Counted from the first letter of the stretch, positions 21,137-45,216 are shown. The stretch is 64,000 nt of DNA from Planctomycetota bacterium (GCA_035527715.1 DATKZY010000187.1:49388-113387), one strand, 5' to 3'. The notes: a model not told the origin generated them from the sequence alone. Program-made: numbers and translations.

Positions 21137-21853
21137 TTGGGCTCTGTGGGGCAGAAAGTTCGCTCGCACTTTCACGCCACGGCGCGCGAGTTCGACGCGA
21201 TCTACAGCGGCGAGAAGGGCGCCGCGGCGCGCTGGCTCGACCGCCTGCTGCGCTGGGACATGTACGAGCGCTTCCGCCGCACCGTGGGCGAGTGCTCCGA
21301 GCCCGGGCTGCGCGTGCTCGACGTCGGCTGCGGCTCCGGCCGCTTCAGCGTCGCCGTGGCCAGGGCGGGGGCGAGCGAGGTGCTGGGCCTCGACTTCGCC
21401 GAGAACATGCTCGAGATCGCTCGGCAGCTCGCGCAAAGGGAGGGGGTGGGCGAGCGCTGCCGCTTCCTCGCCGGCGACTTCATGGAACGCACGTTCGACC
21501 AGCCGTTCGACGTCACGCTGGCGATCGGGCTGTTCGACTACGTGGCGGACTGCCGCCCCTTCCTGCGGAAGATGCGCCGGGTGAGCCGCAGGAAGGTGGT
21601 CGCCACGTTCCCGCGGCGCTGGACGTGGCGGGCACCCGTCCGCAAGCTGCGCCTGGCCCTGTGCGGCTGCCCCGTCTTCTTCTTCACCCGCTCTGAGGTC
21701 GAGCGGCTTATGGCCGACGCGGGGTTTGCCCGCTTTGCCATCCAGCGCATCGGTAAGATCTACTTCGTGGTCGGCCACTGCGAGGGGTCACATCTTCATT
21801 TGGCACCTGGCCGCCCGGTGCGAAATGAAGATGTGACCCCGGGGGCAAGCTGA
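21137..21853 (+). CDS. Class I SAM-dependent methyltransferase. Its C-terminal 20 codons are supplied by a palindromic element.
   Basis: VLDVGCGSGRFSVAVA is motif I. The start is TTG 21137 or GTG 21146, after GGGAAGGGG. The last ~20 codons (GSHLHLAPGRPVRNEDVTPG) are encoded by palindromic element copy A1. Confidence 0.65.
   Translation: MGSVGQKVRSHFHATAREFDAIYSGEKGAAARWLDRLLRWDMYERFRRTVGECSEPGLRVLDVGCGSGRFSVAVARAGASEVLGLDFAENMLEIARQLAQREGVGERCRFLAGDFMERTFDQPFDVTLAIGLFDYVADCRPFLRKMRRVSRRKVVATFPRRWTWRAPVRKLRLALCGCPVFFFTRSEVERLMADAGFARFAIQRIGKIYFVVGHCEGSHLHLAPGRPVRNEDVTPGAS
21784..21840. mobile_element. Palindromic element family A, copy A1, about 57 bp: GGGGTCACATCTTCATTTGGCAC-11 nt-GTGCGAAATGAAGATGTGACCCC
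   Basis: The 23-nt arms are complementary at 22 of 23 positions. The element is in-frame at the 3' end of the methyltransferase CDS. Confidence 0.8.
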
Positions 21854-23289
21854 TGCGCGTGTGCGTCGTGGTCAACGGCTTGGGCGAGGAGCGGGCGGCG
21901 CTGGCTTCCTACGTGCTGCGAACGCTGCTCGGAACCATGGGCCTGTCCCTTTCTCCGCGCCGAGCGGACGGCCTTCTTGTGAGCTATGGGTGCCCCATCC
22001 CTGCCGATGGCGCAGGGGTCGAGATCGCGTGCGGCGACCCTCCGACGCCTGAGGAGGCAATTCAGGTGCACCGCCGCGTGACGAGCGAGGGGCCATCCCT
22101 CCTCGTGGCGGAGGGGCCGCGGGTGCGCGTGACGGCGGACCTCGTGGGCGCGGCGGGCCTCTGGCTCGCCGGCGGCGAGGAGCGAGCGGAGGGCTTCGAC
22201 GCATTCGGCCGCGCGTGCGGCGCCGCGAGCCCCCGCGCCGCTGCCGGCCTGCTTCGCACCCCCATGGTCCACGACCTGATGAGCCTGTTGTGCGCGGCGC
22301 TCTCCCGAGCGGCTGAGGCGGCCGGGCTTTCGCTCTCGCGTGTTCCCGCGTGGCCCGAGGGCCGCAAGTTCGCCGTCCTCCTGAGCCACGACGTGGACCT
22401 CTGGCGCAAGCGAACCGCTCGGCAGCTTGCCAAGGAGACGGTGAAGAGCCTCGCGCGCCCCTGGCGACTGCCCGGTGTCGCACGGGCCTTCTGCTGCGGG
22501 CCGGACCCGTGGAGCGATCTCGACGCCATCGCCGACCTCGAGGGACGCTACGGCATGCACTCGACCTTCTTCGCGCTGCCTGGCCGCCCGAACCGGGTAG
22601 TGGATGGCGTGGGGGTGGTGAACTCCTATGGCGCGAGGGCTGGCGCCGTCGGGGAGGCGTTGCGCCGCCTCGTCGCCCGCGGCTGGGAGGTGGGCCTCCA
22701 CGGCAGCTTCGACTCGTATCGGTCGACCGAGGCCCTCGCCGGCGAGCGGCGCGACGTGGCGGCGCTCCTGGGGGTCACATCTTCATTTGCCACTTCTCGG
22801 CAAGTGCGAAATGAAGATGTGACCCTCGTCACGGGCTGCCGCCAGCACTTCCTGCGCTTCGAGCGACCCGTCACATGGCGTGCCCAGGCCGAGGCCGGCC
22901 TGCGCTACGACGCGACCCTCGGCTACCACGACACCGACGGCTACCGCGCCGGCTTCTCGTTCCCCTTCCGGCCCTTCGCGGGCGAGGAACTGCTGCTCCT
23001 GGAGCTCCCGCTCGCCGTGATGGACGGGGCGCTCCTCGAGCGACAGGGGCTCGACGCCGAGGCCGCCTGGGGCCTCGTTGAGGGGTATCTCAAGCGCACG
23101 GAGGCGGACGGCGCGATGCTGGGCCTCCTGTGGCACAACAACTACTTCTGCGACCTGGACGCGCCCGGCTACCGAGGCGTCTACGAGCGAGCGCTCGGCT
23201 GGACCCGCGACCACGGCGGCTGGGGCGCCTCGGCGCGCGAGATTGCCGAGTGGTGGGAGCGCCGCGCCGCGCTCCTCCAGGAGGGCTGA
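21853..23289 (+). CDS. Polysaccharide deacetylase (NodB/CE4-like) family protein with an N-terminal extension
   Basis: 478 aa. FAVLLSHDVDLW, LHGSFDSYRS and GCRQHFLRFERP are deacetylase-like motifs. Element copy A2 is inserted in-frame, encoding GVTSSFATSRQVRNEDVTLV. Confidence 0.75.
   Translation: MRVCVVVNGLGEERAALASYVLRTLLGTMGLSLSPRRADGLLVSYGCPIPADGAGVEIACGDPPTPEEAIQVHRRVTSEGPSLLVAEGPRVRVTADLVGAAGLWLAGGEERAEGFDAFGRACGAASPRAAAGLLRTPMVHDLMSLLCAALSRAAEAAGLSLSRVPAWPEGRKFAVLLSHDVDLWRKRTARQLAKETVKSLARPWRLPGVARAFCCGPDPWSDLDAIADLEGRYGMHSTFFALPGRPNRVVDGVGVVNSYGARAGAVGEALRRLVARGWEVGLHGSFDSYRSTEALAGERRDVAALLGVTSSFATSRQVRNEDVTLVTGCRQHFLRFERPVTWRAQAEAGLRYDATLGYHDTDGYRAGFSFPFRPFAGEELLLLELPLAVMDGALLERQGLDAEAAWGLVEGYLKRTEADGAMLGLLWHNNYFCDLDAPGYRGVYERALGWTRDHGGWGASAREIAEWWERRAALLQEG
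22771..22825. mobile_element. Palindromic element family A, copy A2
   Basis: GGGGTCACATCTTCATTTGCCAC-10 nt-GTGCGAAATGAAGATGTGACCC, in-frame inside a deacetylase gene. Confidence 0.8.
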
Positions 23290-23292
23290 GGC

Positions 23293-23904
23293 GTGGCGGC
23301 GTTGCTGAGGGCGGCCAGGCGGGTTGGCGGCATCATCCGGGTCCGGCGCCAGCAGCTCTTCGAGCTGACCGACCCGGCGGACATCCTTGCGGTGCAGCCG
23401 AAGCTGGACATCGCTATGGTGTTCGTGACCGAGGAGAATGTGGACCGCGTGACGGACTTCCGCGACGAGACCGTTGCCGCCGCGTTCCGCGGGTTCCTGC
23501 GCGAGGGGCAGCTCGGCGTCTACGCGGTCGCGGGCGGCCGCGTGGTCGGCCACGCCTGGGCGCTCGTGTGCGCCCGGGAGCGGTGCCGCGCCAACGGCTA
23601 CCTCGCGCTCCGCCAGGGCGAGGCCTGCATCCACTTCTGCCAGGTGCGGGAAGAGCGTCGCGGGCGGAACGTGTACCCCGCCATGCTCGTGGCCCTGTGC
23701 GGGCGGCTGTTCCAGGAGGCGAAGGTGCGCAGGGTCATCATTGACGCGGCGCTGGACAACACGGCCTCGCTCCGCGGCATCCGCAAGGTCGGCTTCCGGC
23801 CCACGGAGCGGCGGCTCTATGTCCAGCTCGCGGGCCGGCTGCTCCTCGGGAGACGGCTGACGGACGCCATCGGCGCGGCGCAACACGGCGGCTCAGGGGG
23901 CTAG
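23293..23904 (+). CDS. GNAT-family N-acetyltransferase
   Basis: 203 aa. The acetyl-CoA-binding-like segment is QVREERRGRNVYPAMLVAL. It starts at GTG after GGAGGGC. Confidence 0.65.
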   Translation: MAALLRAARRVGGIIRVRRQQLFELTDPADILAVQPKLDIAMVFVTEENVDRVTDFRDETVAAAFRGFLREGQLGVYAVAGGRVVGHAWALVCARERCRANGYLALRQGEACIHFCQVREERRGRNVYPAMLVALCGRLFQEAKVRRVIIDAALDNTASLRGIRKVGFRPTERRLYVQLAGRLLLGRRLTDAIGAAQHGGSGG

Positions 23905-23909
23905 ACGCT

Positions 23910-24929: not shown

Positions 24930-26128
24930 TGCCTACTCCGCGATCCGCAACCCGCGACCCGCAGTCCCGGTCAGGCCCTCTCCGTGTCCTCGTCCTCGCC
25001 GGTATCTTCCCCTACGAGGGGAACGAGACGTTCGGCCTGTCCACCTGTCGCCGCACCATCGAGCTGGCGCGGCTGTGCGACGTCAAGGTGCTGGCGCCGA
25101 CGTGGCGGCGGGGCCTCCCGGCCAGGGAGGCGTTGGCCGGCGTGGACGTGCTCCGCCCGCGGTGGCGCCGCGTGCCGAAGCTGGGCGTGCTTGTGGACGG
25201 CTTTCGCTACGCGGCGCGCGCGGCCAGGGCGATTGACGCCATCCGGCCCCCCTTCGACTTCGACCTGATAGATGCCCACTGGCTCTACCCCGACGCCTTC
25301 GCCGCCGTGCGCCTCGGGCGGCGGTTCGGCAGGCCGGTCGTGGTCACAGGCCGCGGCAGCGATGTGGACGAGTTTCTCGTCCGCTGGCCCGTGCGATACT
25401 TCGCCCGTGCGGCGCTTCGCGGGGCGGCCCAGATCGTTGCCCTCACGCGCCACCACGAGCAGAAGATGATCGAGGCCGGCGCCCCGGCCGGGCGAATCGC
25501 CGTGATCGCCAACGGCGTGGACACGGCGCTCTTCCGCCCGGGCGACCGCGGGGAGGCGCGGCGGGCGTTGGGCCTGCCGCCCGACGGTTTCGTGCTGTTC
25601 TCCGCCGGCGCACTCGTCGAGGACAAGGGCCACCACCACCTCATCCGGGGGCTTTCGCTCCTCGGCAGCGAGGCCCAGGCGAGCCTCTACATCGCTGGGC
25701 CAGGCTCGTACCGGGAGACGCTCCTGCGGCTCATCGAGTCGCTGAGCCTTCGGGACAGGGTCGCCCTCCTCGGGCGCGTCGAGCAGCGGCAGATGCCGCT
25801 CTGGTATCAGGCGGCGGACTTCTTCTGCTTCGGGAGCTATCACGAGGGCTGCCCAAACGTGGTTCTGGAGGCTGTCGCGTGCGGCACCCCGGTTGTCTCG
25901 ACCAACGTCGGTGGCATCCCCGACCTCGTCGAGGAGGGGCGCTCGGGCATTCTCTTCAAGCCGCGCTCCGACGAGGCATTCGCCTCCGCCCTTCGCACGG
26001 CGCTGGAGCGGCCCTGGGACCGGGCCGCGATTGCCGCCCTGGGCGCCCGACGCTCCTGGGCACACGTCGCCGCCGAATACCTGGCCCTCTTCGAGCGGCT
26101 CTTGGCAGGCAAGCATGGAGCAGTCTGA
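24926..26128 (+). CDS. GT4-family glycosyltransferase
   Basis: The C-terminus has FSAGALVEDKGHHHL...CFGSYHEGCPNVVLEAVACGTPVVST. It overlaps the neighbouring genes at both ends. Confidence 0.85.
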   Translation: MMPTPRSATRDPQSRSGPLRVLVLAGIFPYEGNETFGLSTCRRTIELARLCDVKVLAPTWRRGLPAREALAGVDVLRPRWRRVPKLGVLVDGFRYAARAARAIDAIRPPFDFDLIDAHWLYPDAFAAVRLGRRFGRPVVVTGRGSDVDEFLVRWPVRYFARAALRGAAQIVALTRHHEQKMIEAGAPAGRIAVIANGVDTALFRPGDRGEARRALGLPPDGFVLFSAGALVEDKGHHHLIRGLSLLGSEAQASLYIAGPGSYRETLLRLIESLSLRDRVALLGRVEQRQMPLWYQAADFFCFGSYHEGCPNVVLEAVACGTPVVSTNVGGIPDLVEEGRSGILFKPRSDEAFASALRTALERPWDRAAIAALGARRSWAHVAAEYLALFERLLAGKHGAV

Positions 26129-27221
26129 AATCGGAAATCGAAGAACCCTGCTTCTCCTCACAGTGGATACCGAGTCGAGCATGGCCGGCGTGCGCCCGCT
26201 GCCGCCCGAGGCGATGGTGTGGGGGTCACCTCTTCATTTCGCACATGGCGGCTATGTGCCAAATGAAGATGTGACCCCTGGCGGCACCTGGGGCATCGAG
26301 CGGCTGATGGACTGCTTCGACGCCCGCGGCCTCAAGGCCACGTTCTTCGTGAGCACGCTGGAGGAACTCCACCACGGTGAGGAGCACGTGAAACGCATTT
26401 GCTCGGCCGTTCTGGACCGCGGCCACGACGCGCAGCTCCACCTCCACCCCAACTGGTGGAAGGGCGATTTCGCCCGCAAACGGCTCACCGACTACTCGCT
26501 CGAGGAGCAGACCGAGCTCGTGCGTCTCGCCAAGGAGGCATATCGCCGCGCGTGCGGCTCGGAGCCCGTAGCGCATCGCGCCGGCGGGCTGCTCGTGAAT
26601 GCCGACACGTTCCGCGCCCTGGCGGCGAATGGGATTCCGATGGATTCCTCGGTCGCCATCGGCCACATCCCCTATGAGCTTGGCGAAGGGGTGACGCCGC
26701 CCAACGTGCCCCGACGGCTCGGCTCCGTCATCGAGGTGCCCGTCACTACCTTTGCCCAGATGCGCCTCGGCCCCTGGGCGCCGCGGCGCCACTTCGACCT
26801 GAATGCCGATTCCCTCTCGGAGCTGAAGCTCGTGGTGGACCGCGCCGTGCAGCAAGGCGCGGCGGCGGCGTGCCTGCTGATGCACAGTTTCTCGCTCATT
26901 GCTCGGAACCGCGAGGGGACGGAGTTCAGGCCCGCCGAAGCCGAGTGCCGCAAACTCGAGCGATTCCTCGACTATATTGCCACGCGTGGGGATGTGGAGG
27001 TCGTGACCGTTCGCGAGGTGGCCCGCCGCATCGAGGGCGAGCCCGCGCTGCTCGCGGGGCCGGACCTCGAGGCGACCGCAGGCGTCTTCCGCACGTGGCG
27101 GCGGAGCTGCGAACGCTTCGGCGCGGGCTGGAAGAGCAAGGCATTCGCGCTGGGCCTCCCCCTCGGGCTGGCGGCCCTTGCGGCGCTGGTGATAGGAGCC
27201 ATCTGGTGGCTGACGTCCTGA
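26115..27221 (+). CDS. Polysaccharide deacetylase-like protein (divergent NodB-like LTVDTE type). Palindromic element A3 is inserted in-frame.
   Basis: It begins MEQSEIGNRRTLLLLTVDTESS and contains HLHPNWW plus a C-terminal TM. ATG 26115 overlaps the previous gene by 14 nt, and ATG 26181 is an alternative start. A heptamer array at 26124..26144 spans the junction. Confidence 0.6.
   Translation: MEQSEIGNRRTLLLLTVDTESSMAGVRPLPPEAMVWGSPLHFAHGGYVPNEDVTPGGTWGIERLMDCFDARGLKATFFVSTLEELHHGEEHVKRICSAVLDRGHDAQLHLHPNWWKGDFARKRLTDYSLEEQTELVRLAKEAYRRACGSEPVAHRAGGLLVNADTFRALAANGIPMDSSVAIGHIPYELGEGVTPPNVPRRLGSVIEVPVTTFAQMRLGPWAPRRHFDLNADSLSELKLVVDRAVQQGAAAACLLMHSFSLIARNREGTEFRPAEAECRKLERFLDYIATRGDVEVVTVREVARRIEGEPALLAGPDLEATAGVFRTWRRSCERFGAGWKSKAFALGLPLGLAALAALVIGAIWWLTS
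26124..26144. repeat. Heptanucleotide array TCTGAAA TCGGAAA TCGAAGA overlapping the TGA stop of the GT4 gene
   Basis: It is period-7 and belongs to the same family as the 28251 and 59637 arrays. Confidence 0.75.
26222..26278. mobile_element. Palindromic element family A, copy A3, in inverted orientation relative to A1/A4
   Basis: GGGGTCACCTCTTCATTTCGCAC-11 nt-GTGCCAAATGAAGATGTGACCCC. It is in-frame and encodes GSPLHFAHGGYVPNEDVTPG. Confidence 0.8.
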
Positions 27222-28285
27222 AGCTCGCCGCGCGGCAGGCCGTGGCGTTCCTGGCGGTGCGCTCGCGGCTGTGGCCCGTCGTGCCGAAGGGCCGCGCCCT
27301 CGTGCTTCGCTACCACCGGGTCGCCCGTGCCGGCGCGCCGCCCGTGCCGCTCGCGGTGCCTGCGGCGGAGTTCGAGGCCCAGTTGCGCTTTCTCGCCGCG
27401 CGCGCTCACGCGATGACCGCGGGCGAGATCGCCGCCGCAGCGGCCGGCGGCCAGCCCTTGCCCCCCAACGCCGTCGCTATCACCTTCGACGACGGCTACG
27501 AGGACAACTGCTCGCAGGCCCTCCCGCTCCTCCAGCGCTACGGCCTGCGAGCCACCTTCTTCGTCACCGCAGGCTGGATCGGCACCGAGAACGTCCTGTG
27601 GTGGGACCGGCTCCACGACTACATCCGCCAGGCGGCGGCGCTGGCCGCGCGGCCCATAGACTACCAGGACCTCCCGAAGCCGCTGGTCGCCGCACTGGCG
27701 GCCGCGGACCTCCGCACCGGCGCCGGCGCCGCGCGGCTCGAGCGCGACCTCGCCGCGGCGCTCGGCGGCCTGGCCCTCACGCCCGAGGAGACCGATCTCC
27801 TCGTCGAGCGCGTCGCCTCCGCGCTGGGGTCCGACGTGGCCGACCCCGAGCCCTACCGCCCCATGACCTGGGACCAGGTGCGCGAACTGCACCAGGCGGG
27901 CATGGAGATCGGCTCGCACACCATGTCGCATGGCCGCCTGGTCCACGTGCCTGCCGAGCGCGCCTACGAGGAGCTGGAACGGTCAAAGCAGGCTATCGAG
28001 CGGGAGTTGGGTGCCCCCGTCTCGCTCCTCGCCTATCCTGCCGGGAGCCACAACCAGGACGTCGTGGACCTCGCGGTGGAGACGGGCTACGAGGCCGCCT
28101 TCACGACGGCCAGCGGCCCCGTGGCCCCGGGCGACGACCTGTTCCGCCTCCGCCGCATCGGCGTCTGGGCGGGCGGCTATCGTGGGGCGCTCAACAGCTT
28201 TTCTGATTCCGTCTTTGGCCTCCAGCTCGGACGCTTGGCGCGTCAGCCAAGCGGAAATCGGAAACCGGAAACCGGCAATGCCTAG
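27206..28285 (+). CDS. Polysaccharide deacetylase (NodB/CE4) family protein
   Basis: [19 protein letters not shown] and LAYPAGSHN are present. It starts at GTG 27206, overlapping the previous gene by 16 nt, so the start is uncertain. Confidence 0.75.
28251..28278. repeat. Heptanucleotide array GCGGAAA TCGGAAA CCGGAAA CCGGCAA ending exactly on the A of the ATG at 28278
   Basis: Four units. It encodes the C-terminal tail ([11 protein letters not shown]) of the upstream gene and forms the immediate 5' context of the next start codon. Confidence 0.85.
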
Positions 28286-30275: not shown

Positions 30276-31163
30276 ATGAACCAGAAAGCGGCGGTTGTCG
30301 AGCACTTCGACCGGTTCGCAGCGGACGATCGTTGGTCGAGTCTCTACGACGAGATCCGGGATCCGTTGGCGGCCCACAGCTTCCTGATGCGCAAGCGGCG
30401 GGTCGAAGAGCTGTCCGAGCCGCTCGTGGGGCAGGGCTCGAAGGTGCTCGACGTCGGCTGCGGCACGGGCCTCAGCGCGCCCTTCTACATCGAGAAGGGC
30501 TGCCGCTACCAGGGCGTGGACATCGCGGCGAAGATGATCGAGCAGGCGCGGACCAAGGTATGTGGGCGGGGGCTCTGTCCCCCGAGAGAAGCAGGAGAAG
30601 AAGCGGGGCGCGGAGGCCCCGCCCACAACGGTACAGCCGTCTTCGCCATCGGCGACGTCGAGGCCGGCCTCGCCTTTCCCGACGGGCATTTCGACCTCGT
30701 CATCGGCCTCGGCCTGCTCGAGTACCTGGACCGGCTGGACGCGGCGCTCGACGAGATGGTGCGGGTGACACGGCCGGGCGGGAGTCTGATCCTCACGGTG
30801 CCGAATCGCAATTGTGTGAATTACTTCGCCACCCGCGCCCTCGGGCCAGTCGTGTCGAGCGCCTGGTGGCTCGTCAAGCGTCTGCTGCGGCGGCCCATCG
30901 AGAAGCACGGCGTCTATCATCGGCGGTTCACGGCGGCCCGATTCGCGCAGTGGCTCGCCGACCGCGGCTGCGCGAAGACCGGCCAGGCGTATTACAACCT
31001 GGAGGCGCTCTTCTACCCGCTCCACCGCATTTGCCCCAGGCTGGCCTACGCCCTCAAGCGCCGCGTCGAGCGCCGCCACGAGGGCTGGATGCACGTCCTT
31101 GCCACTGGCTACATCCTTCGCTGCCAGAAGGGTGGGGGAGAGGAGGGGGGCGCCGGTGCCTGA
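30276..31163 (+). CDS. Class I SAM-dependent methyltransferase carrying an in-frame compound palindromic insert
   Basis: VLDVGCGTGL is motif I and LILTVPNR is also present. An insert of about 68 nt at 30561..30628 (TGTGGGCGGGGGC...GCCCCGCCCACA) encodes VCGRGLCPPREAGEEAGRGGPAHNG between motifs. Confidence 0.8.
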   Translation: MNQKAAVVEHFDRFAADDRWSSLYDEIRDPLAAHSFLMRKRRVEELSEPLVGQGSKVLDVGCGTGLSAPFYIEKGCRYQGVDIAAKMIEQARTKVCGRGLCPPREAGEEAGRGGPAHNGTAVFAIGDVEAGLAFPDGHFDLVIGLGLLEYLDRLDAALDEMVRVTRPGGSLILTVPNRNCVNYFATRALGPVVSSAWWLVKRLLRRPIEKHGVYHRRFTAARFAQWLADRGCAKTGQAYYNLEALFYPLHRICPRLAYALKRRVERRHEGWMHVLATGYILRCQKGGGEEGGAGA

Positions 31164-36166: not shown

Positions 36167-37525
36167 ATGCGCGTGACGCTGGTGCAACCCGACACGGGCG
36201 GGAGCTATCCGCCGCTGAGCCTGGGCTACCTGGCGGCCTATGCCGCCGCGCGGGGCCACGAGGCGCGGATTCTCGACCTCCAGGTGCCCGCGCAGCGCGA
36301 GCGCTGGGAAGAGCTTCTCGTCGAGGCTCGGCCCGACCTCGTCGGCTTCACGGCCCTCACGCCGAGCATTCGCCAGGCGGGTGAGCTGGCCGCCCGCGCC
36401 CGCGAGCTTCTCCCCAGCGCGAAGCTCATCGTCGGCGGATTTCACGCCTCGATGGAGCCTGAACAGACGCTTCGCGACTATCCCGCCTTCGACTACCTGT
36501 GCATTGGCGAAGGCGAGGAAACGCTGGCCGAGCTGTGCGGGCGGCTCCAGGACGGCCAGTCGCCGGAAGGCATCGCGGGCCTCGCGTGGCGGAAGGGCGA
36601 GGCCGTCGAGCTCGGGCCGCCGCGGGGCCGGATCGCCGACCTCGATCTTCTGCCGAGCCCCCATGGCTTCTACGGCCTCGAGCACTACCTCGAATCGGGC
36701 AGTTTCACCTACCAGTATGGCTATCGCTGCGCGTCGGTCATCGCGTCGCGGGGTTGCCCGTTTCGCTGCCGGTTCTGCTCGATTCCGGGCAAGTACGTTC
36801 ATCAGTCGGTCGAGCGCCTGGCCGACGAGATTGCGGAGCTGCTTCGGCGGGGGGCCGACGGCGTGTTCTTCCGCGACAGCACGTTCACGATCCGGCGCGA
36901 CTGGGTGCTGGCCTTCTGCGAGGCCGTGCGCCAGCGGCGGATGCGGTTCCACTGGATCGCGAACGCGCGGCCGGACCTCGTGGACGACGAGCTGCTGGCG
37001 GCGATGAAGCGCGCGGGCTGCTTCGCCCTCTGCTACGGCGTCGAGAGCGGCCGCGACAGCGTGCTCGACTACTATGGCAAGGACCACACGGTCGAGGACA
37101 CCCGCCGCGCCGTGGCCGCGACGAAGCGCGCGGGCATTCGTGTCATCGCCTACTTCATGCTCGGCGCGCCCATCGAGACGCGGGCCGACATCGAGGCGAG
37201 CCACCAGTTCGCCCGCGAGCTGGGCGCCGAGCGCACGATCTGGAAGATCTTCGCCCCGCTCCCCGGCTGCGAGATCTACAACGAGCTGAAGGCCAAAGGC
37301 GTGAAGCTGGACTTCGATGCGATTCGCACCGACCGGGCCTCGTATCCGCTGGCAGACATGACCGAGGCGGAGATCGAGCAGCGGTTCCGCGAGCTACAGG
37401 CAGAGTTCGCCTACACCCGCGGCAGCCGCCTCCGCGTCTTCTGGCGTCAGCTTCGCCGCGTCCGCTCGCCCCGCGACGCCTGGCGCCTCGCCCGCCGGGT
37501 GGCAGCCAGGCTGCTTCGTGGGTAG
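36167..37525 (+). CDS. B12-binding domain radical SAM protein, tandem paralog of the 34571..35953 gene
   Basis: MRVTLVQPD...SRGCPFRCRFCSIPGKY. The domain order matches the upstream paralog and the two are about 50% identical by eye. Confidence 0.85.
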   Translation: MRVTLVQPDTGGSYPPLSLGYLAAYAAARGHEARILDLQVPAQRERWEELLVEARPDLVGFTALTPSIRQAGELAARARELLPSAKLIVGGFHASMEPEQTLRDYPAFDYLCIGEGEETLAELCGRLQDGQSPEGIAGLAWRKGEAVELGPPRGRIADLDLLPSPHGFYGLEHYLESGSFTYQYGYRCASVIASRGCPFRCRFCSIPGKYVHQSVERLADEIAELLRRGADGVFFRDSTFTIRRDWVLAFCEAVRQRRMRFHWIANARPDLVDDELLAAMKRAGCFALCYGVESGRDSVLDYYGKDHTVEDTRRAVAATKRAGIRVIAYFMLGAPIETRADIEASHQFARELGAERTIWKIFAPLPGCEIYNELKAKGVKLDFDAIRTDRASYPLADMTEAEIEQRFRELQAEFAYTRGSRLRVFWRQLRRVRSPRDAWRLARRVAARLLRG

Positions 37526-37630
37526 GATGGTTGGATGAATGGATGACTGGATGATTGTCAGAGGAGCCTTGCCGCCTTCCCATTCATCCATCCATCCACC
37601 CATCCATTCATCCTCCTCCAGGAGGCGCAT

Positions 37631-38647
37631 GTGAGCCGCTGGGCCAGGCAACTCGTCGTCACCGTGTCCGTCGAGCCCGACGATCCGTCGGTCGTGGGCC
37701 GGTCGGGAGCGTATCGCTCACTCGACGGGCTTGAGCGGTTCCACGAGCTGTGCCGACGCTACGGCGTGCGGCCGACGTATCTCGCCACGTACTCGGCGGC
37801 GGGGGAGACCCGGTGCGTGGACCTCTTCCGCTCCTGCGGCGACGAGGCCGAGGTCGGGGCGCACCTGCACCCCGAGGAGGTGCCGCCCATCGCCGAGGGC
37901 GAGCGTGGCAACCACACGCTGCGCCCGAGCGCGGTCGAGCCCGGCCGCCTGCGGGAAAAGCTGGCCAACCTCGTCGAGCGCGTGGCGGAGGCGGCGGGGC
38001 GGCGGCCCACCGCGTATCGCGCCGGCTTCTTCGACCTCACGCCCAGCCAGGTCGTCGCGCTTGTTGGGCTGGGGATCGAAGCCGACTCCAGCCTTGGCCC
38101 CCTGGAAAAGGTCGGCGGCAAGTACCCGTTTCTTCGCGTTCCCTTTGAGCCATACGTCGCTGACCCCGCGAACCCGTGCACAGAGGCTCACGCGTCACGC
38201 GTCACGCGTCACGCATCACTCGTCGAGGTTCCCCTCACCAGCGTCTTCCGCCGTCCTTTTCCCAGGCGGCTTTTTGGTGTATACTTCGGGATGCCGGGTG
38301 TCGTGCGAGGGGCGCTGCGCGCGCTCGGCGCCGCCGAGGTGCTGCGGTTCCGCCCGGCAGTGGCCTCCGCCGACGACTTGCTGGCCGTGTGCCGGCGCAC
38401 GGAGCGGCTGGGCGTGCCCGCGGTCATGACCATTCACTCGAACGAGTTGTGGCCGGGCACGAGCGCGGGGTCACATCTTCATTTGGCACCTGGCGGCGAA
38501 GTGCGAAATGAAGATGTGACCCCCGAGGCGGCCTGTGCCGCCTACTTCGAGCGCCTCGAGCGGGTGTTCGCGCATTGCCAGGCGGACGGCTGGGCGAGCC
38601 GCACGCTCACGGAGATCGCCCGCGCAACCCGGGGGAATGCGGGATGA
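37631..38647 (+). CDS. Polysaccharide deacetylase-like protein (LTVDTE-type paralog of 26115..27221). It carries palindromic element A4 and an in-frame GTCACGC heptamer array.
   Basis: VVTVSVEPDD...HLHPEE. Element A4 encodes GSHLHLAPGGEVRNEDVTPE. The array at 38187..38214 encodes AHASRVTRHAS. Confidence 0.65.
   Translation: MSRWARQLVVTVSVEPDDPSVVGRSGAYRSLDGLERFHELCRRYGVRPTYLATYSAAGETRCVDLFRSCGDEAEVGAHLHPEEVPPIAEGERGNHTLRPSAVEPGRLREKLANLVERVAEAAGRRPTAYRAGFFDLTPSQVVALVGLGIEADSSLGPLEKVGGKYPFLRVPFEPYVADPANPCTEAHASRVTRHASLVEVPLTSVFRRPFPRRLFGVYFGMPGVVRGALRALGAAEVLRFRPAVASADDLLAVCRRTERLGVPAVMTIHSNELWPGTSAGSHLHLAPGGEVRNEDVTPEAACAAYFERLERVFAHCQADGWASRTLTEIARATRGNAG
38187..38214. repeat. Heptanucleotide array CTCACGC GTCACGC GTCACGC ATCACTC, in-frame in a CDS
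   Basis: The same GTCACGC array recurs at 63815..63842 inside the last gene. Confidence 0.8.
38467..38523. mobile_element. Palindromic element family A, copy A4
   Basis: GGGGTCACATCTTCATTTGGCAC-11 nt-GTGCGAAATGAAGATGTGACCCC. It is nearly identical to A1. Confidence 0.8.
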
Positions 38648-39058: not shown

Positions 39059-42000
39059 ATGCCGATGCCCCAGGTGCACTTCGCGGTCGGCATGGGAGCG
39101 GCCTCGCTGCTGGGCGTGCCGCTGCTCGTGCTGCGCCGGCGCTGGCTCCTGTGGCTGCCGCTCGTCATGACCGCGTGCGGCGCGCTGGCGCTGGTGCCCG
39201 ACGTGGTAGCGCGGGGCAGGGACTTCCTGCCCGGGCCCGCGGCCGAGCGGGGGCGCACGCACACCCCCGCGGCCAACGTGTTCTTCCTGCACACGTGGCT
39301 CGACCGGCAGCCGGCCCTCTACGCGCCGGCCGTGGCCGACCTGGCGTTCCAGGCCGTGGCGCTGATGTACCTGGCCTCCGCCATCGGCTATGCGGCCTTC
39401 CTCCGCTGGGGGCTCCCTCGGATGGCCGAAGCGGGGGAGGCGTTAGCGCGGCTGCGGCGCGAGACGGCGAGCTATCGCCCCGTGGCCGCCCTGCTCGGCC
39501 TGCTGCCGCTCGTGGTGGCCGGCGCGGCGGCGGTGTGGACGCTGTGGCCCAAACGCCCCGCGGGCGCGCCCGCCCAGGGGCAGGAGGCGCTCGACCCCGC
39601 GCAGTGGGCGCAACTTGTCTCGCGGCGCCTCGGCGTCGCGGTCGGCCAGCGCCTCGGCGTCGTCCATTCGACATGGGACAGCCATGGGGCCTGGCTGTGC
39701 GGCGACCTGGGGGCGAGGGTGTCGCCCGACGCGCCGGGCGCCGCCGAGCTCGTCGAGCGCGCGAAGGCCAATGGCTGCGATTTCGTGGCGTTGCTGGACG
39801 GCGCGAGCCCTGACGACCTTGCCGCGGCGCGACAGAAGCACCCCGACATGGCCCTCCTGGCGGGCCTGGTGTGGGACGCGCCGACGAGGCGGGGGGCCGA
39901 GCGAGCCATCGTGCTGGTGCCGCCGCAAGCGCGCGAGGCCGCGGTGCTGGCCGACTTCCGCCGGCAGTTCGCCGGCCCGGGCGGATCGGCAGAGGATGCC
40001 CTGCGATGGCTCGACGCCCACGGCGCCTCGCCCAAGGCACAGCCCGTGGTCCTGGCGGCACAGGCTTCCAGCCTGTGGGCCACAGGCAAGATGCCTGTGC
40101 CACCGGGCAGCGGGGAGGGCTGGCCGGATCTCTTCTCGTGGCGGCGGACGAATGGGCTGTTCATCGGCTTCCTCGGCCTTCCGGGCGCCGAACGCCTGTC
40201 CGCCCGCGAGGCCCGCAGCCAGTGGGACCCCCGCGTGGCCGCCGTGGGGGGCATGTGGGACAGGTTCCTGGACGGGGGCTTCCGGCTCTGGGGCGCGGCC
40301 GCGGCATCCGGCTTCCAGGACCCTGCCCGGCAGTTCTGGCCGGGCGAGTTCGCCCGCACCCACGTGTGGTGCCGCGGGCGCGCCGCGGAGGACGTGTTGG
40401 GCGGCCTCCGGGACGGGTGCTTCTGGGCCGTCGAGGGCGCGGTCGTGCGCGCGCTGGACTTCGGGGTCAACGCCCCGACGCTCGAGCGGCCCGCGCGGAT
40501 GGGCGAGGTGGCCCGCGTGGCGCCGGGCGACGAGGTGACCGTGGAGCTGGCCCTGGACGTGCCGCCCACCGACTTCGCCGGGCGCCCGAGCCAGCTCGAC
40601 GAGGTGGAGCTGGTCTCGAACTTCGGCGGCGAGGCCGAGGTCGTCGCGCGGTTCCGCAACGTGCACGACGTGCGCCGCCTCGAGCACCGCCTGCCGCCGG
40701 CCCAGGACGCCAACGGCGGCCTCGGCTTCTACGTGCGCGCCCGAGGCTCCCGCCGCGTGGATGCGGGAGCGCGGCTGTTCTTCTACACGAACCCCATCCG
40801 CGTCCTCGTGCGGCCGGGGCTGGCGCCGCCGGCGCCGCCGGGCGCGGCCCCCGTCCGCGTGGCCTCGGCGCACCGCCCCGTCGAGCCCGCGCCGCCGAAG
40901 CCCAAGACGGCGACGCCCGTAGCGCCGCCGCCCGAGGACGACGTGCGGGCGCGGCTCGCCGCCGTCGGCCTGCCGGCCGGCGTGAGCCCCGTGTGCGTCG
41001 AAACGTTTCAGAAGCCGCCCGGGCGCCAGTGGCTTGGCGCCCACGTGAGCATCATCGGCGACCGCGGCCCGGCCCTGGGCGACGAGGAGCTGCGCGTCGA
41101 GCTCCTCCAGCGCATCCCCCTTGGCGAGGCCACCCGACTGTTCTTCCGGTGCTACGCCTTGGACTGTGCCCGGCTGACGCTTGTCGCGCGCCCCGGCGGC
41201 GGAGCGGCCGCCTGCCAGGCCGTCCGCGAGCTCCCCGAGCGTCAGTGGGTCGAGTTCGACCTCTCGCTCGGCGACGACTTCCTGCCCCTGCGCGGGACCT
41301 CGGGCCGCCTGGGGCCGCCGGGCGAGGTCCAGGCCCTCGAGTGGGCTGGCGCCCGCCTCGGGCCGCTCTCGCGCTTCTACGTGACCGATGTCGTCGTCTA
41401 CGAGCCCACGCCTGCCAGCCGCCAGGGGCTGGCCCTGAAGCAAGCGGTGGACCTGGACGCGGCGCTGCGCGAGACGGCGGGCCGAGGGGCGACCGCAGCC
41501 ATGCAGCAACGGGCCCAGGCCGCCCTGGACCGCCTCGCCGCCTGGCGCGCGCGGCTCGACCCCAGACGAGGGCCACCGACGCCCGACGAACTGGCCGCCG
41601 TCCGCCGCGACCTGGCCGAGTTGGCCGCCGAGAGCCGTTGTCTTGGCTGGCAGGCCGCCATGACTCGCACCTTCCGCCTCGGCGACCCCAGGTTCGCCGT
41701 CACCCTCGCCGCCCCCGGCCAGCGCATCTCGGCGCGCAACCCCGCGCTCAACCCGTCGCCACAGATCGCCCGCTCGTGGGACCTGGCCGCCGCCGGCGCC
41801 GAGGCCGAGAGCGTCCAGATCGTCGTCATCGCCCTCTGGGACAGGCTCGAGGCCGTCGCCGTCGGCGTCTCGCCGTTCGTCCCTGTGGCTCGGGATGGGG
41901 CCGAGGGCCCGCCCGGCGGCGAGCGGGCCGCCACGCTGCCGACCTCGCTTGCCCTCGTGGGCGAGGCGATGGTGCGCCCAGGCCCCCTCCTCGCCCCCGA

Positions 42001-43882
42001 GCAGGCGGGGTGGATGCCCGACCCGTTGCTGCCGTTCCAGCTCTTCGACGTCGAGCCGGGCGAGGCCCGCTCGCTGCTTCTCACCGTGGAGGTGCCGCCC
42101 GACCTGTTGCCCGGCGAGTACGAGAGCGAGGTCACCGTGCAGCCGCGGGGCATGGAGCCCGTGCGAGTGGCGGTGCGCCTGCGCCGCTGGGGCTTCACCC
42201 TCGAGGGCCACCCCCTCGCGGTGTTCGGCCCGCTCGACGAGCGGGCGCTCAGCGCGCACTGCGCCTCCGGCAAGGCCGTTCCCCAGCCGCTTCGCCGCGC
42301 GCTCTACGAAATGCTGCTGCGCCACGGCGTGACCCCGGTGCCCCTGCTCGGCGGCGACGAGGCGGCGGACCTCGAGGAGGCCCTCTTCTGCCTCGAGGCC
42401 GGCGCGGGCGTAGTGGTCCTGCGCGAGGCTGCCTCCGTGGCCCCCGGGCCGCGGGAGGCCGACGTGGCTCGCGCCGCGCGCTGTGCCGACAGGATTCGCG
42501 AGGCCGGCTGGGGGCGCCGCGGCGCGCTCCTCCTGCCCCTGGCGCCCGACGCCGAGAGGGAGCGCTCCCGGATGGCCGCCTTCGCCCGCACCCTCGCCCG
42601 CGAGCACCCGGCGCTCCTGCTCCTCGCGGGGGGCGACAGCGACCCGCCCCTCGACCTGGTGACCCACGTGTGGCGCCGTCCCCTGGGCGCCGACCCGCCG
42701 CGCCGGCCCCACGACAACGACGTGGATGTCCGCCTCTCCCGCACCGCCCGCCGCGAGGGCTGGGAGCTTGTCGCCGGCTCGCCCGAATCCCCCGTGCCCG
42801 GTCTCCTCGTCACCAGCCCACTCCACCACGTCCGCCTCCTGCCCTGGCTCGCCTGGCAGCACGGCGTCCGAGCCCTCTTCCTCCGCGGCGTGACCCGGTG
42901 GCAGGAGGACGACGATTTGCGCGACGGCGCCCTCGTCTACCCGCTCCCTCTTCCCGCACACCCCGCTCCCGGGGGGGGAGGGTGCTGCGCCTCGCTGCGC
43001 CTCGTGGCCCTCCGCGACGGCATCGAGGACTACGCCTGCCTGCGCCTGCTCTGGGACCGCGCGCGCCTGCTGCGCGAGCGCGCCGCCGCACGACACGGGC
43101 CCCTCCTGGCCGCGGCGGAACGCCTTCTCGCCGACGCCGCCGGCGGCATCGGCACCCTCCAGCGCCCGTGCCGCGACCCACACGTGCTCGCGACCCTGCG
43201 CGCGCGGCTGGCCCGCGAGCTCGAGCGTCTCGACGCCGCCTGGTGGGCCGAGGTGGACGCCGCGAAGGACCTCCCGCCTCCGCCGCCCGCCCTCACCGCG
43301 AAGCCGGGCGACGGCCAGATCGTCCTCACCTGGGGCAGGAGCCCCGACGCCAAGGTCGTCGGCTACAACGTCTTCCGCAGCCGCGCTCCCGAGGCCGGCT
43401 TCGCGCGCCTCAACGCCCTTCCCATCGAGGGCCTCACCTACGTGGACCGCTCGGTGGCCAACGACGTCACCTACCACTACTTCCTGCGCTCGTGCCGCGA
43501 CGGGCTGGTGGACGGCCCTCGGAGCGCCCTGGCCTCCGCCCAGGCCCGCCCGGCGCCGCGCATCGTGTGGCTGCCCGGCGCCACGCCCCGCCACGGCGTC
43601 GCCGGGCCCTGCCGCATCGCGCTCCGCGTCGAGGGGCCCGGCACGGCCGGCCTCCTGCCCCTCGTGCGCCCGCAGATGGACTACGCGGCCGCCGGCGCCG
43701 CGTTCGACGGCTTCGAGGACATGACGCGCCAGGACGACGGCACCTGGGCCTTCGACATTCCCGACCTCGGCTGGCGCCGCCTCGCCGGCGAGAGGCTCCG
43801 CATCCAGGCGCGCATCGTGGACCGCCAGGGCCGCGTCGTCACGCCCCCGGTCGAGCGCAGCGAAACCATCGGCGCGCCCTGA
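39059..43882 (+). CDS. Large (1607 aa) membrane-anchored multidomain protein: N-terminal membrane domain, central DUF4091-like (glycoside-hydrolase-associated) region and C-terminal fibronectin type III-like domain
   Basis: The frame is continuous with high GC3. WMPDPLLPFQLFDVEPGEARSLLLTVEVPPDLLPGEYESEVTV resembles DUF4091. The Fn3-like region is PGDGQIVLTWGRSPDAKVVGYNVFRS. A double CACAGGC hairpin is inserted in-frame at 40057..40101. Confidence 0.65.
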   Translation: MPMPQVHFAVGMGAASLLGVPLLVLRRRWLLWLPLVMTACGALALVPDVVARGRDFLPGPAAERGRTHTPAANVFFLHTWLDRQPALYAPAVADLAFQAVALMYLASAIGYAAFLRWGLPRMAEAGEALARLRRETASYRPVAALLGLLPLVVAGAAAVWTLWPKRPAGAPAQGQEALDPAQWAQLVSRRLGVAVGQRLGVVHSTWDSHGAWLCGDLGARVSPDAPGAAELVERAKANGCDFVALLDGASPDDLAAARQKHPDMALLAGLVWDAPTRRGAERAIVLVPPQAREAAVLADFRRQFAGPGGSAEDALRWLDAHGASPKAQPVVLAAQASSLWATGKMPVPPGSGEGWPDLFSWRRTNGLFIGFLGLPGAERLSAREARSQWDPRVAAVGGMWDRFLDGGFRLWGAAAASGFQDPARQFWPGEFARTHVWCRGRAAEDVLGGLRDGCFWAVEGAVVRALDFGVNAPTLERPARMGEVARVAPGDEVTVELALDVPPTDFAGRPSQLDEVELVSNFGGEAEVVARFRNVHDVRRLEHRLPPAQDANGGLGFYVRARGSRRVDAGARLFFYTNPIRVLVRPGLAPPAPPGAAPVRVASAHRPVEPAPPKPKTATPVAPPPEDDVRARLAAVGLPAGVSPVCVETFQKPPGRQWLGAHVSIIGDRGPALGDEELRVELLQRIPLGEATRLFFRCYALDCARLTLVARPGGGAAACQAVRELPERQWVEFDLSLGDDFLPLRGTSGRLGPPGEVQALEWAGARLGPLSRFYVTDVVVYEPTPASRQGLALKQAVDLDAALRETAGRGATAAMQQRAQAALDRLAAWRARLDPRRGPPTPDELAAVRRDLAELAAESRCLGWQAAMTRTFRLGDPRFAVTLAAPGQRISARNPALNPSPQIARSWDLAAAGAEAESVQIVVIALWDRLEAVAVGVSPFVPVARDGAEGPPGGERAATLPTSLALVGEAMVRPGPLLAPEQAGWMPDPLLPFQLFDVEPGEARSLLLTVEVPPDLLPGEYESEVTVQPRGMEPVRVAVRLRRWGFTLEGHPLAVFGPLDERALSAHCASGKAVPQPLRRALYEMLLRHGVTPVPLLGGDEAADLEEALFCLEAGAGVVVLREAASVAPGPREADVARAARCADRIREAGWGRRGALLLPLAPDAERERSRMAAFARTLAREHPALLLLAGGDSDPPLDLVTHVWRRPLGADPPRRPHDNDVDVRLSRTARREGWELVAGSPESPVPGLLVTSPLHHVRLLPWLAWQHGVRALFLRGVTRWQEDDDLRDGALVYPLPLPAHPAPGGGGCCASLRLVALRDGIEDYACLRLLWDRARLLRERAAARHGPLLAAAERLLADAAGGIGTLQRPCRDPHVLATLRARLARELERLDAAWWAEVDAAKDLPPPPPALTAKPGDGQIVLTWGRSPDAKVVGYNVFRSRAPEAGFARLNALPIEGLTYVDRSVANDVTYHYFLRSCRDGLVDGPRSALASAQARPAPRIVWLPGATPRHGVAGPCRIALRVEGPGTAGLLPLVRPQMDYAAAGAAFDGFEDMTRQDDGTWAFDIPDLGWRRLAGERLRIQARIVDRQGRVVTPPVERSETIGAP
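40057..40101. repeat. Palindromic element family C: GGCACAGGC-ttcca-GCCTGTGGGCCACAGGC-aagat-GCCTGTGCC, nested hairpins, in-frame in a CDS
   Basis: 24 nt are identical to 28593..28616 in the GT2 gene. It encodes [17 protein letters not shown]. Confidence 0.75.
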
Positions 43883-44786: not shown

Positions 44787-44935
44787 GCCGCAACCACCCA
44801 CGTTGTCATTCCGAGCTTGTCGAGGAACCTTTCAAGGGTATTGCCGCAACAGCGAGTTCTGCCTCGATCTGCGTCAGTTCCCCGCCCGAGCGTTGTGCCA
44901 GGCCTTACAGCGGCGGCGTCGAGAAAGTCACCCCG

Positions 44936-45151
44936 CCCTTGCACGCCGGCTTGCCCCTCGCCCAGGTCGCCGCGGAGTTCCTCGGCCTGGAGCGCGGCCA
45001 CACGCCCCTGGTCCCCGCCCTCGAGTGGTCGCGCACCCACGGCTCCCGCCTCGCCGTCACGTTCGACGGCGCGGCCCTGTTCCGGGGCTTCCTTGCTGCC
45101 ATAGACCAGGCCTGGTCGAAGCCATTCGAGGAACGACCGGGCGACCGTTAG
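44936..45151 (+). CDS. Hypothetical small protein. It may be a spurious ORF.
   Basis: Only the 3' 70 codons of track ORF 44783..45151 have coding-like GC3. The 5' part has low GC3 and no homology was recognised. Confidence 0.2.
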   Translation, partial: PLHAGLPLAQVAAEFLGLERGHTPLVPALEWSRTHGSRLAVTFDGAALFRGFLAAIDQAWSKPFEERPGDR

Positions 45152-45187
45152 CCTGTAGCGGGGCCGCCGGAACACTGCGACCAGAGC

Positions 45188-45216
45188 GGGGTCACATCTT
45201 CCTTGTCATTTGGCAA
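45188..45216. mobile_element. Degenerate solo left arm of palindromic element family A (GGGGTCACATCTTC-cttgtc-ATTTGGCAA), intergenic
   Basis: It matches the A-family left arm apart from a 6-nt insertion. No right arm follows. Confidence 0.5.

Follow-up and report, generated by a model that had tools for sequence, protein, structure and literature searches.

Short palindromes inserted in frame into genes of high-GC Planctomycetota, probably derived from the terminal inverted repeats of TIRYT transposase units

To our knowledge, palindromic repeats inserted in frame into genes are best documented in Rickettsia, and we know of no account of what moves them. Hairpin-forming doublets of another kind make up the REPIN/RAYT systems, reportedly treated by Bertels and Rainey in 2011. 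Known insertions of Y1 transposases (IS200/IS605) are clean and lie 3' of a short target, and the TIRYT family of Y1 proteins is, as far as we know, biochemically uncharacterised. In the available accounts, the Rickettsia palindromic elements (RPEs) are palindromic selfish repeats that lie in frame inside unrelated genes (Ogata et al. 2000, via PMC10969869 and PMC3733652), intragenic REPs are reported for Opitutus terrae and R. conorii, and some REP dimers encode 20-30 residues inside genes (PMC3733652). TIRYT/TIRtron units are the subject of Di Nocera, De Gregorio and Rocco 2013 (PMC3733652); their terminal inverted repeats (TIRs) are defined by the motif GGGGWSAS and may form moderately abundant families, as dimers or clusters (PMC3733652; PMC6006769), and TIRYT proteins, which carry a Bac_DnaA_C/HTH tail, constitute subclass 2.1 of the TnpA(REP)-like Y1 proteins (Quentin et al. 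2018, PMC6006769). The published TIR families come from Stenotrophomonas, Acidobacteria and others, and are not described as in-frame peptide inserts in the portions of this literature available to us.

The window analysed here is a stretch of 64,000 nucleotides from a Planctomycetota bacterium, for which four near-perfect palindromes and one solo arm had been predicted. A search for the arm GGGGTCACATCTTCATTT with up to three mismatches returned nine matches in the window against 0.01 expected by chance. Eight of them form four inverted pairs, at 21784-21840 (A1, + strand), 22771-22826 (A2, +), 26222-26278 (A3, -) and 38467-38523 (A4, +), and the ninth is unpaired. The same four palindromes emerged from a repeat finder, with arms of 24-28 nt and 89-93% complementarity, and both searches agree with the original prediction at lengths of 56-57 bp: A1, A3 and A4 measure 57 nt, and A2, with a loop one base short, 56 nt. 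As ssDNA the palindromes fold at -21 to -28 kcal/mol with z scores of -8.1 to -9.7; the solo arm did not fold as ssDNA (z = +1.4). All four palindromes are situated in the sole high-GC3 reading frame of their host ORFs.

A1 encodes GSHLHLAPGRPVRNEDVTP close to the C-terminus of a class I SAM methyltransferase (21110..21853, +; Pfam Methyltransf_31/25/11) that shares 81% identity with L120:761-1633 and whose start codon is uncertain, the longest ORF being 20435-21853. A2 lies inside a 478-residue polysaccharide-deacetylase-like protein with DUF7033-type relatives (21853..23289, +; GC3 0.87), to which P0069, a protein labelled as coming from a Planctomycetota MAG, is 100% identical. The right arm of A2 keeps the usual frame (VRNEDVT), whereas its left arm is translated in another (GVTSSFATS). 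A3 contributes SPLHFAHGGYVPNEDVTP to the loop that follows the LTVDTE motif in a 368-residue CE4-type polysaccharide deacetylase (26115..27221, +; Pfam Polysacc_deac_1, E = 1.3e-5) with a C-terminal transmembrane helix and 68 homologues. The asymmetric core of this copy is opposite in orientation, TTTCGCAC..GTGCCAAA versus TTTGGCAC..GTGCGAAA, which bears out the claim that A3 is inverted yet in frame. A4 encodes GSHLHLAPGGEVRNEDVTP about 40 codons ahead of the stop of a 338-residue deacetylase-like protein (37631..38647, +) with 1070 relatives at E <= 1e-3. The original prediction had asked whether the inserts fall in surface loops; for the A3 host, AF2 confidently predicts a folded enzyme (mean pLDDT 92.9) in which the insert forms a beta-hairpin (E40-43, E46-49) separating beta1 from alpha1, with lower confidence over the insert itself (10-residue block means of 85 and 76 against 93 and 98 in adjacent blocks).

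The unpaired match (45188-45205) is part of a solo TIR-like arm, GGGGTCACATCTTCCTTGTCATTTGG (45188..45213, +), located between genes and 50 bp upstream of an ORF (45263-46258) that was considered as a transposase and rejected, since it encodes a Polysacc_deac_1 + DUF3473 deacetylase. No sigma-70-like promoter was detected adjoining the arm. It runs on as ..CTTGTCATTTGG and resembles a longer TIR form, GGGGTCACATCTTCATTTGTCATTT[A/G], that terminates TIRYT units and larger MITEs elsewhere, as well as the 26-nt TIRs of the unit in L067 and the TIRs of a MITE in L094. Judging from this continuation, it represents the longer TIR type and not the decayed copy it had been taken for.

At all four window sites the segment is absent from the orthologues (up to 39 per gene), and DNA empty sites were recovered for each element. 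For A1, the orthologues in L120 and L121 end ..GHCGEREGAG* with no insert; 9 nt of target are replaced and the net gain is +48 nt. For A2, 30 orthologues read G-x-x-V where the window reads G[VTSSFATSRQVRNEDVT]LV, and the empty site in L120/L121 likewise gives +48 nt. For A3, 39 orthologues read MVWGRVGGGTWGI with no insert, the empty sites in L118/L119 give a net gain of +45 nt, and the insertion replaces a nearly invariant Arg of the host. For A4, most HMMER matches end at query residue 278-279, immediately ahead of the insert; P0190 and distant homologues are without it, L122 provides the DNA empty site, and L137, with flanks about 82% identical, shares the insertion. A further insertion absent from orthologues was found at L120 7284-7340. 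Each window site has lost 8-12 nt of its target, so that the net gain amounts to 15-16 residues and not to the 19-20 originally proposed.

Target loss extends beyond the window. In all 18 filled/empty pairs 6-12 nt of target are replaced (15 in one comparison), with a modal change of about 9 bp, and a clean insertion was seen in none. Neither did any of the 18 pairs show a target-site duplication, and the replaced segments and flanks of the 14 well-aligned pairs yielded no consensus target motif. Note that the pair L204/L203 was excluded, as both of its alleles proved to be filled, with part of an arm duplicated. A shorter mobile unit of 49 nt landing in GGGG/CCCC was rejected, the empty sites being without such sequence. 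Clean insertion of the IS200/IS605 type 3' of a short conserved target was thus not observed in these pairs: target was lost in every one and no shared motif emerged, and we know of no described Y1 mechanism that matches a universal loss of 6-12 nt.

Across at least 112 copies, only one of the three frames on each strand is free of stops, and both orientations encode GSHLH[LF]A..V[RP]NEDVTP; the same frame is open both ways because the element is a palindrome. The original prediction had taken in-frame preservation in both orientations to imply selection on insertion phase or targeting of a specific site, but a single stop-free frame per strand in a palindrome suffices, so that survivorship alone keeps the frame, with no targeting. 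A2 was inserted in another phase, and its 1-nt loop deletion restores the frame. The open frames, together with the signature of purifying selection, suggest that the inserts are translated.

The family is large: related Planctomycetota MAGs and metagenomes contain at least 112 distinct copies, and of the 112 listed, 107 are exactly 57 bp long. At least 118 stretches were matched in the metagenome scan, and the MAGs VGYV01, JBGLNR01 and CAWHBY01 proved in the genome scan to carry the palindrome as well; the latter scan covered 596 Gb with a 16-nt arm that was too short, and its 117 loci are mostly chance matches in AT-rich genomes, the informative ones having been selected by context. Among the listed copies, 48 of 112 are clearly internal to long high-GC3 ORFs, 21 stand at ORF ends or are cut by contig ends, and 43 are intergenic or ambiguous by strict criteria, under which two copies proven to lie within genes are misfiled too. 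Long ORFs hold at least 60% of the listed copies (at least 69 of 112), which, with all four window copies, upholds the view of a palindromic family in frame within coding sequences. A single protein may carry up to four copies, inserts are found at the N-terminus, in loops and at the C-terminus of unrelated proteins, and close relatives differ in the presence or absence of insertions. From the insert-free orthologues, at the protein level and as DNA empty sites, and from more than 100 further copies in related genomes beyond the locus, it follows that the prediction passes the tests it had set itself, namely the same segment in distant orthologues and a lack of other copies. An integron attC site (no GTTRRRY core), a CRISPR repeat (no regular spacing) and an intrinsic terminator (no T-run) were rejected from the sequence, Rfam gave no family match in the window or in four TIRYT/MITE loci, and a literature search for the arm sequence found no match.

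The arms point to a source. All of them start with GGGGTCAC, fitting the GGGGWSAS motif of the TIRYT TIR families, and inverted repeats with the 18-nt arm bound IS200-like Y1 transposase units of about 1.0-1.1 kb in several phyla, the arm being identical to the ends of units from Desulfobacterota and Verrucomicrobiota whose only gene is the Y1 transposase. In L067 (4147-5168), a 1022-bp unit has 26-nt TIRs, GGGGTCACATCTTCAT[T/A]TGTCATTTA, around the Y1 gene; in L058 (4158-5266), the same 18-nt arm stands on both sides (Pfam Y1_Tnp, 6.9e-14); and related TIRs in L123-L125 read GGGGTCACATCTATAC.., GGGTCACATCTCCAC.. and GGGGTCAGATCTCGAT... TIRYT proteins form a very large family, 7777 of 8000 candidates scoring E <= 1e-3, and one MAG with 57-bp copies also contains a 270-bp MITE with 27-nt TIRs of the long type. 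Neither the 64-kb window nor any of about 120 fetched loci carrying the 57-bp element contained a TIRYT (Y1) gene, so a cognate enzyme in these Planctomycetota is an assumption. The claim of a novel family is accordingly to be narrowed: the arms are known GGGGWSAS-type TIRs of TIRYT units, whereas the 57-bp dimer itself, with its strict length, Planctomycetota hosts, target loss and conservation, appears in neither PMC3733652 nor PMC6006769, as far as the available parts of these papers go.

We consider it probable that the elements are a large family of minimal non-autonomous TIR-dimer mobile elements of one high-GC Planctomycetota lineage, derived from TIRYT units. Each would join, head to head, two copies of the outermost 18-23 nt of a TIR (GGGGTCAC..., GGGGWSAS class) of the type bounding the units of an IS200-like Y1 (HUH) tyrosine transposase whose C-terminal part is an HTH. 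The hairpin would be mobilised in trans, probably as ssDNA as proposed for REPIN/RAYT, by a TIRYT enzyme whose gene lies elsewhere in the genome; alternatively, the identity of the TIRs could reflect a double-strand, TIR-binding mechanism and not a hairpin intermediate. Genic insertions would survive only with the stop-free frame in phase and a net length change of 3n, and the survivors would add a His-rich beta-hairpin of 15-16 residues to tolerant loops or termini. Integration would not be a clean paste and may involve the removal of roughly one helical turn from the target. The link to TIRYT provides a concrete candidate enzyme-substrate pair to test.

A bolder version, which we offer tentatively and as rather doubtful, holds that TIRYT-type Y1 enzymes put the 57-nt TIR-dimer hairpin in place of about one helical turn of the target (6-12 nt) by 'cut-out and replace', and that the cassettes are then kept uniform actively by hairpin selection or gene conversion. 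Target loss, strict 57-nt length, a conserved mismatch and slow copy divergence are mechanistic clues that current Y1 transposition models do not predict. If this version were true, target-site deletion would be a transposition outcome undescribed for any bacterial transposase family, and the cassettes would be a long-lived source of new surface beta-hairpins in planctomycete enzymes.

The degree of conservation raises the question of whether the hairpins are instead host-functional elements under selection, be it as a signal for mRNA processing or stability, as a structural or protein-binding site in the DNA or as a useful His-rich peptide module, their spread being secondary. Copies persist in genes under purifying selection (dN/dS 0.23-0.68, dS 0.25-0.49 at orthologous filled sites), and at these sites the element differs at 1-7 of 60 nt against 12-21% in the flanks, so that its conservation is about three times that of the neighbouring coding DNA and its divergence far below dS. 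Such conservation could reflect host function instead of selfish persistence, but recent or repeated insertion, or gene conversion within a family of more than 100 copies, can also produce it. Compensatory changes are seen at six pairs of the stem, the observed covariation being reached by 0 of 500 shuffles, and a G·G mismatch is kept in 93-95% of copies; the compensatory changes fit equally well a need for the arms to pair and a need for both ends to be alike, two readings that they cannot separate. The fixed length and the identical peptide from both orientations would also suit a host function, as would SHLHLAHGGH, a candidate metal binder, and the many polysaccharide-modifying hosts in one cluster. 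However, the hosts are unrelated proteins that take the insert anywhere from N-terminus to loops to C-terminus, a large share of the copies is seemingly intergenic, close relatives vary in presence and absence, the A3 host has lost its nearly invariant Arg, the arms belong to a transposase unit, and there is neither a T-run terminator feature nor an Rfam match, so that we regard selection for a host function as unlikely.

Even less probable, to a degree that makes it improbable outright, is that the elements are ordinary MITEs of a DDE-type IS, with the TIRYT likeness of the repeats incidental and the Y1 association elsewhere irrelevant. DDE transposition duplicates its target whereas every site here loses target, even if the modal change of about 9 bp recalls the sizes of DDE staggered cuts. 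The element does consist of two inverted repeats only, as in minimal MITEs, and none of the planctomycete copies in the fetched loci has an adjoining TIRYT gene; yet the fetched loci held no DDE transposase gene bounded by these arms, and the 18-nt arm is the end of the Y1-only units named above. Correia elements and other DDE-derived MITEs are similarly short, bounded by terminal inverted repeats and in some copies fused to ORFs, but have target-site duplications (TA for Correia), lengths of 100-155 bp and IHF sites or promoters, whereas the planctomycete element loses 6-12 nt of target and has only an 11-nt loop region as internal sequence. The lack of a target duplication makes the analogy to Correia elements drawn in the original prediction a poor one.

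Local duplication or an assembly artefact within this gene cluster, as four copies within 17 kb in paralogous-looking deacetylase and methyltransferase genes might suggest, has practically no chance of being correct, being refuted by hosts that are not close paralogues (in an all-against-all BLAST of the window proteins their sole cross-match is the element peptide), by the at least 112 distinct and differently flanked copies from many assemblies and samples that are independent of one another, and by the same insertion at orthologous sites of diverged genomes.

As TIR-derived dimers, the elements can be set beside the systems outlined at the outset. In-frame palindromes that orthologues lack at four sites substantiate the predicted RPE-like behaviour: as in RPEs, the elements are in frame in unrelated genes, encode a conserved peptide, are tolerated in functional proteins and are absent from orthologues. 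In the available descriptions, the RPE-1 type measures about 100-150 bp and belongs to AT-rich obligate intracellular Alphaproteobacteria, and RPEs have no known transposase; the present element has 57 bp, resides in free-living Planctomycetota of 70% GC and is tied by its arms to a Y1 transposase family. The two differ in size and base composition, and it is unlikely that the family belongs to the RPEs by descent. With REPIN/RAYT the elements share a short doublet that forms a hairpin and would be moved in trans by a Y1 HUH transposase, and long-lived sequence populations within genomes. The GTAG or CGTC tag of those systems is absent from the arm GGGGTCACATCTTCATTTGGCAC, and a single arm is not itself a palindrome. 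REPIN/RAYT elements are also predominantly extragenic, in contrast to the ORF-borne majority of listed copies and the four intragenic palindromes of the window, and the enzyme linked here is TIRYT (HTH tail), which in other phyla looks multi-copy and IS-like as opposed to single-copy. The family thus probably combines RPE-like behaviour with TIRYT-derived sequence, a high-GC counterpart of the RPEs with a candidate mobilising enzyme, and places such behaviour, with more than 100 copies, in free-living bacteria. The inserts inflate the seeming novelty of proteins in Planctomycetota MAGs and mislead gene callers; the NCBI start of the A3 host lies 22 codons late, so that the catalytic motif is cut off.

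The arm of 18 nt, GGGGTCACATCTTCATTT, has nine matches with no more than three mismatches in the window, against 0.01 expected. The paired matches delimit four palindromes, A1 (21784-21840), A2 (22771-22826), A3 (26222-26278) and A4 (38467-38523), in agreement with a repeat finder, and the ninth, unpaired match is a solo arm at 45188, so that all five features of the original prediction exist. As single-stranded DNA, A1-A4 fold into hairpins of 22-25 bp (-21 to -28 kcal/mol, z = -8.1 to -9.7), while folding of the solo arm gave no structure. The window has 70% GC and contains one long cluster of genes for polysaccharide modification, all read in the same direction; two of the hosts have identical proteins that are named as coming from a Planctomycetota MAG.

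All four palindromes are intragenic, and orthologues without the segment were found at all four sites. For A3, whose host is a CE4-type deacetylase (26115-27221), the window has MVWG-SPLHFAHGGYVPNEDVTP-GGTWGI; the corresponding stretch in 39 orthologues, the most distant at 35% identity, is MVWGRVGGGTWGI, and the DNA of two orthologues shows the empty site. The A2 segment (host 21853-23289) is missing in 30 orthologues, with an empty site also at the DNA level. In the methyltransferase that hosts A1, the two closest orthologues end in ..GHCGEREGAG*, the window protein in ..GHCE-GSHLHLAPGRPVRNEDVTP-GAS*. The A4 insert (host 37631-38647) is missing in one 71%-identical fragment and in ten distant homologues, the HMMER matches listed mostly end at residue 278-279, directly before it, and the empty site was again found in DNA. 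That A1-A4 are copies of a mobile palindrome inserted in frame is, in our view, almost certain. In an AlphaFold model of the A3 host, confident overall (mean pLDDT 92.9), the insert is predicted to be a protruding beta-hairpin between the first strand, with the LTVDTE motif, and the first helix; its 10-residue blocks have lower confidence, with means of 85 and 76 as compared to 93 and 98 in the adjacent blocks. Note that the public annotation of a protein identical to this host (P0001, 346 aa) begins 22 codons downstream, at MAGVRPL, and removes the conserved LLLLTVDTE motif kept in all its orthologues.

The family extends well beyond this contig. In a scan of genome collections, three Planctomycetota/Phycisphaerae MAGs proved to have the same 57-bp palindrome, and a metagenome scan with a 23-nt pattern matched at least 118 stretches. 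After removal of duplicates by their flanks, at least 112 distinct copies remain, and 107 of 112 among the matches listed are exactly 57 nt long. Under strict criteria, which required an ORF extending at least 150 nt to either side and a GC3 of at least 0.8, 48 of these 112 are internal to long ORFs, 21 are located at the end of an ORF or in one truncated by a contig end and 43 are ambiguous or intergenic. As the last class misfiles two copies proven to be intragenic, the intragenic share of 60% is a floor. A single 1219-aa protein holds four copies. With orthologues empty at every window site and this number of copies, the original reading of an in-frame palindromic family resembling the Rickettsia palindromic elements (RPEs) was essentially right.

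Of the two causes that it offered for the in-frame state, selection on insertion phase or targeting of a specific site, targeting is not needed. TGA closes two of the element's three reading frames and leaves only G|GGG TCA CAT... open. Its palindromic structure gives the other strand one open frame as well, and the peptide is nearly the same from either strand (GSHLHLA..VRNEDVTP or GSHLHFA..VPNEDVTP). At a coding density near 90%, random insertion and loss of the disrupted genes leave a frame that is always preserved, and phase targeting is unnecessary to account for it. A2 is an example: it is inserted in another phase, and the loss of 1 nt from its loop brings reading back into the right arm's open frame. 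Two genomes that share one orthologous insertion site differ in the orientation of the asymmetric core.

Insertion is accompanied by loss of target DNA. In 18 of 18 independent comparisons of filled and empty sites (the four window sites and 14 other loci) the empty allele has nucleotides in the element's place: 6 nt at five sites, 8-9 nt at nine and 12 nt at four, one of the latter giving 15 against a second relative. A loss of 0 or 3 nt was seen in none of the 18, and no shared motif was found among the replaced segments. A clean insertion of 57 nt would keep the frame anyway, and selection on frame therefore cannot explain the loss.

The arms point to the origin of the element. In the genome collections, longer elements from Desulfobacterota, Verrucomicrobiota, Pseudomonadota, Entotheonella and Aminicenantes MAGs have these 18 nt at their ends, continuing as GTCATTTA or TTGACAATTG. 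At one locus (L067) the arms enclose a 1022-bp unit consisting of a 26-nt terminal inverted repeat (TIR), a TTGACA/TATAAT promoter, a 315-codon gene and the inverted TIR. At another (L058) they enclose 1109 bp with a gene for Pfam Y1_Tnp (E = 6.9e-14), whose final codons (KMKM*) fall within the TIR. Three more distant homologues have related TIRs (GGGGTCACATCTATAC.., GGGTCACATCTCCAC.. and GGGGTCAGATCTCGAT..), and the Y1 protein family is very large, with 7777 of 8000 candidates scoring E <= 1e-3, named transposase or RayT by their sources. Di Nocera et al. 2013 (PMC3733652) named such genes TIRYT and the units TIRtrons, with a TIR motif GGGGWSAS and TIRs that can make dimer-arranged repeat families; according to Quentin et al. 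2018 (PMC6006769), most TIRYT fall into subclass 2.1 and end in a DnaA-like HTH. The arms are very probably TIRs of the TIRYT type and, as they match TIRtron ends, the planctomycete element would be a bare dimer of TIR heads. VGYV01, a MAG with the 57-bp element, also has a 270-bp MITE whose 27-nt TIRs are of the long form. The solo arm of the window has this long form, and its original description as a decayed copy does not hold. On a 969-kb contig (L123, 721-2816) two adjacent TIRYT genes are surrounded by the TIR GGGGTCACATCTATACTT in five copies, a cluster of the kind described for TIRtrons. No Y1 gene was found in the window or in any examined locus with a 57-bp copy; by analogy with REPIN/RAYT, a resident TIRYT would mobilise the element in trans, and we consider it somewhat probable that TIRYT moves these elements.

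Among known systems, MITE and Correia elements are defined by target duplication, the opposite of what is seen here, and IS200/IS605 elements insert cleanly, without the target loss of the 57-bp element. REP sequences carry a GTAG/CGTC tag, have self-palindromic arms and are extragenic, whereas the element has none of these defining features. It is like RPEs in behaviour and belongs, by probable descent, to the TIRYT TIR family. In-frame intragenic REP dimers have been reported in Rickettsia and in another PVC bacterium, Opitutus terrae, and a review finds in-frame MITE fusions commonest in Rickettsia. Neither the element sequence nor in-frame elements derived from TIRYT were found in the searchable literature. 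The claim of novelty thus stands for the sequence family, but not for the kinds to which it belongs; the finding owes its value to the connection with a named transposase family and to the target-replacement signature.

Five gene pairs in diverged genomes have the element at the same site. Their flanks differ at 12-21% of nucleotides (dS 0.25-0.49), the element itself at only 1-7 of 60 positions; it is constrained, homogenised or recurrently re-inserted. The dN/dS (0.23-0.68) indicates that the host genes stayed under purifying selection with the insert. Among 65 distinct element sequences, six stem pairs have changes on both sides (pair 24-34: A-T 42, T-A 16, C-G 5, G-C 1), a covariation reached by 0 of 500 shuffles, and 93-95% of copies have a G·G mismatch between positions 19 and 39. 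Target loss at every site, conservation of the element and the stem, mismatch and orientation features are predicted by no current model. At one site (L204 5911, L203 723) both alleles are filled; next to the element in one of them, the end of the arm is partially duplicated over 9 nt (GGGGTCACA), and downstream there is a second stretch resembling the arm.

Other repeats occur nearby. An unrelated palindrome at 30561-30627 (TGTGGGCGGGGGCTCTGTCCCCCG..CGGGGCGCGGAGGCCCCGCCCACA) forms a 21-residue in-frame insert in a methyltransferase (30276-31163), is missing in an 89%-identical orthologue (L119, 14283-15107) and has an 88% copy in L059 (859-928). Double palindromes based on GGCACAGGC..GCCTGTGCC lie at 40051-40107 and 18001-18092, one in frame within a 1607-codon ORF (39059-43882), the other at the start of ORF 17969-19174; a 29-residue insert in an A3-host orthologue (P0004, from the MAG JBGLNR01) looks to be of this type. 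Two inverted repeats at 37508-37614 and 34441-34556 are intergenic, one of the GGATGAATGG type with an 82% copy in L068, the other AT-rich (AATGCAAAAGGCAAAGTGCAAAA) between ATP-grasp and B12-radical-SAM genes. Within a DUF3473 deacetylase gene, GTGCGGAATGCGGG is repeated three times in tandem (45852-45900), encoding ECGMRGAECGVRNAEG, and related CGGAATGCCGAATG repeats occur at 18001. SEIGNR or SEIRNPKSEIRN-type peptides are found at N-termini and in loops of several orthologues (P0035, P0086, P0087). One deacetylase loop (L119 11026-12144, L120 7162-8310, window 27206-28285) looks like an insertion hot spot: L120 has the 57-bp element there, L119 another insert, of 31 residues, and the window and L118 have none. 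Finally, a short ORF (46140-46574) precedes an exosortase gene (EpsH, 46623-48191) and matches its first ~100 residues at 75-78% identity; it is a partial tandem duplication of the exosortase N-terminus.
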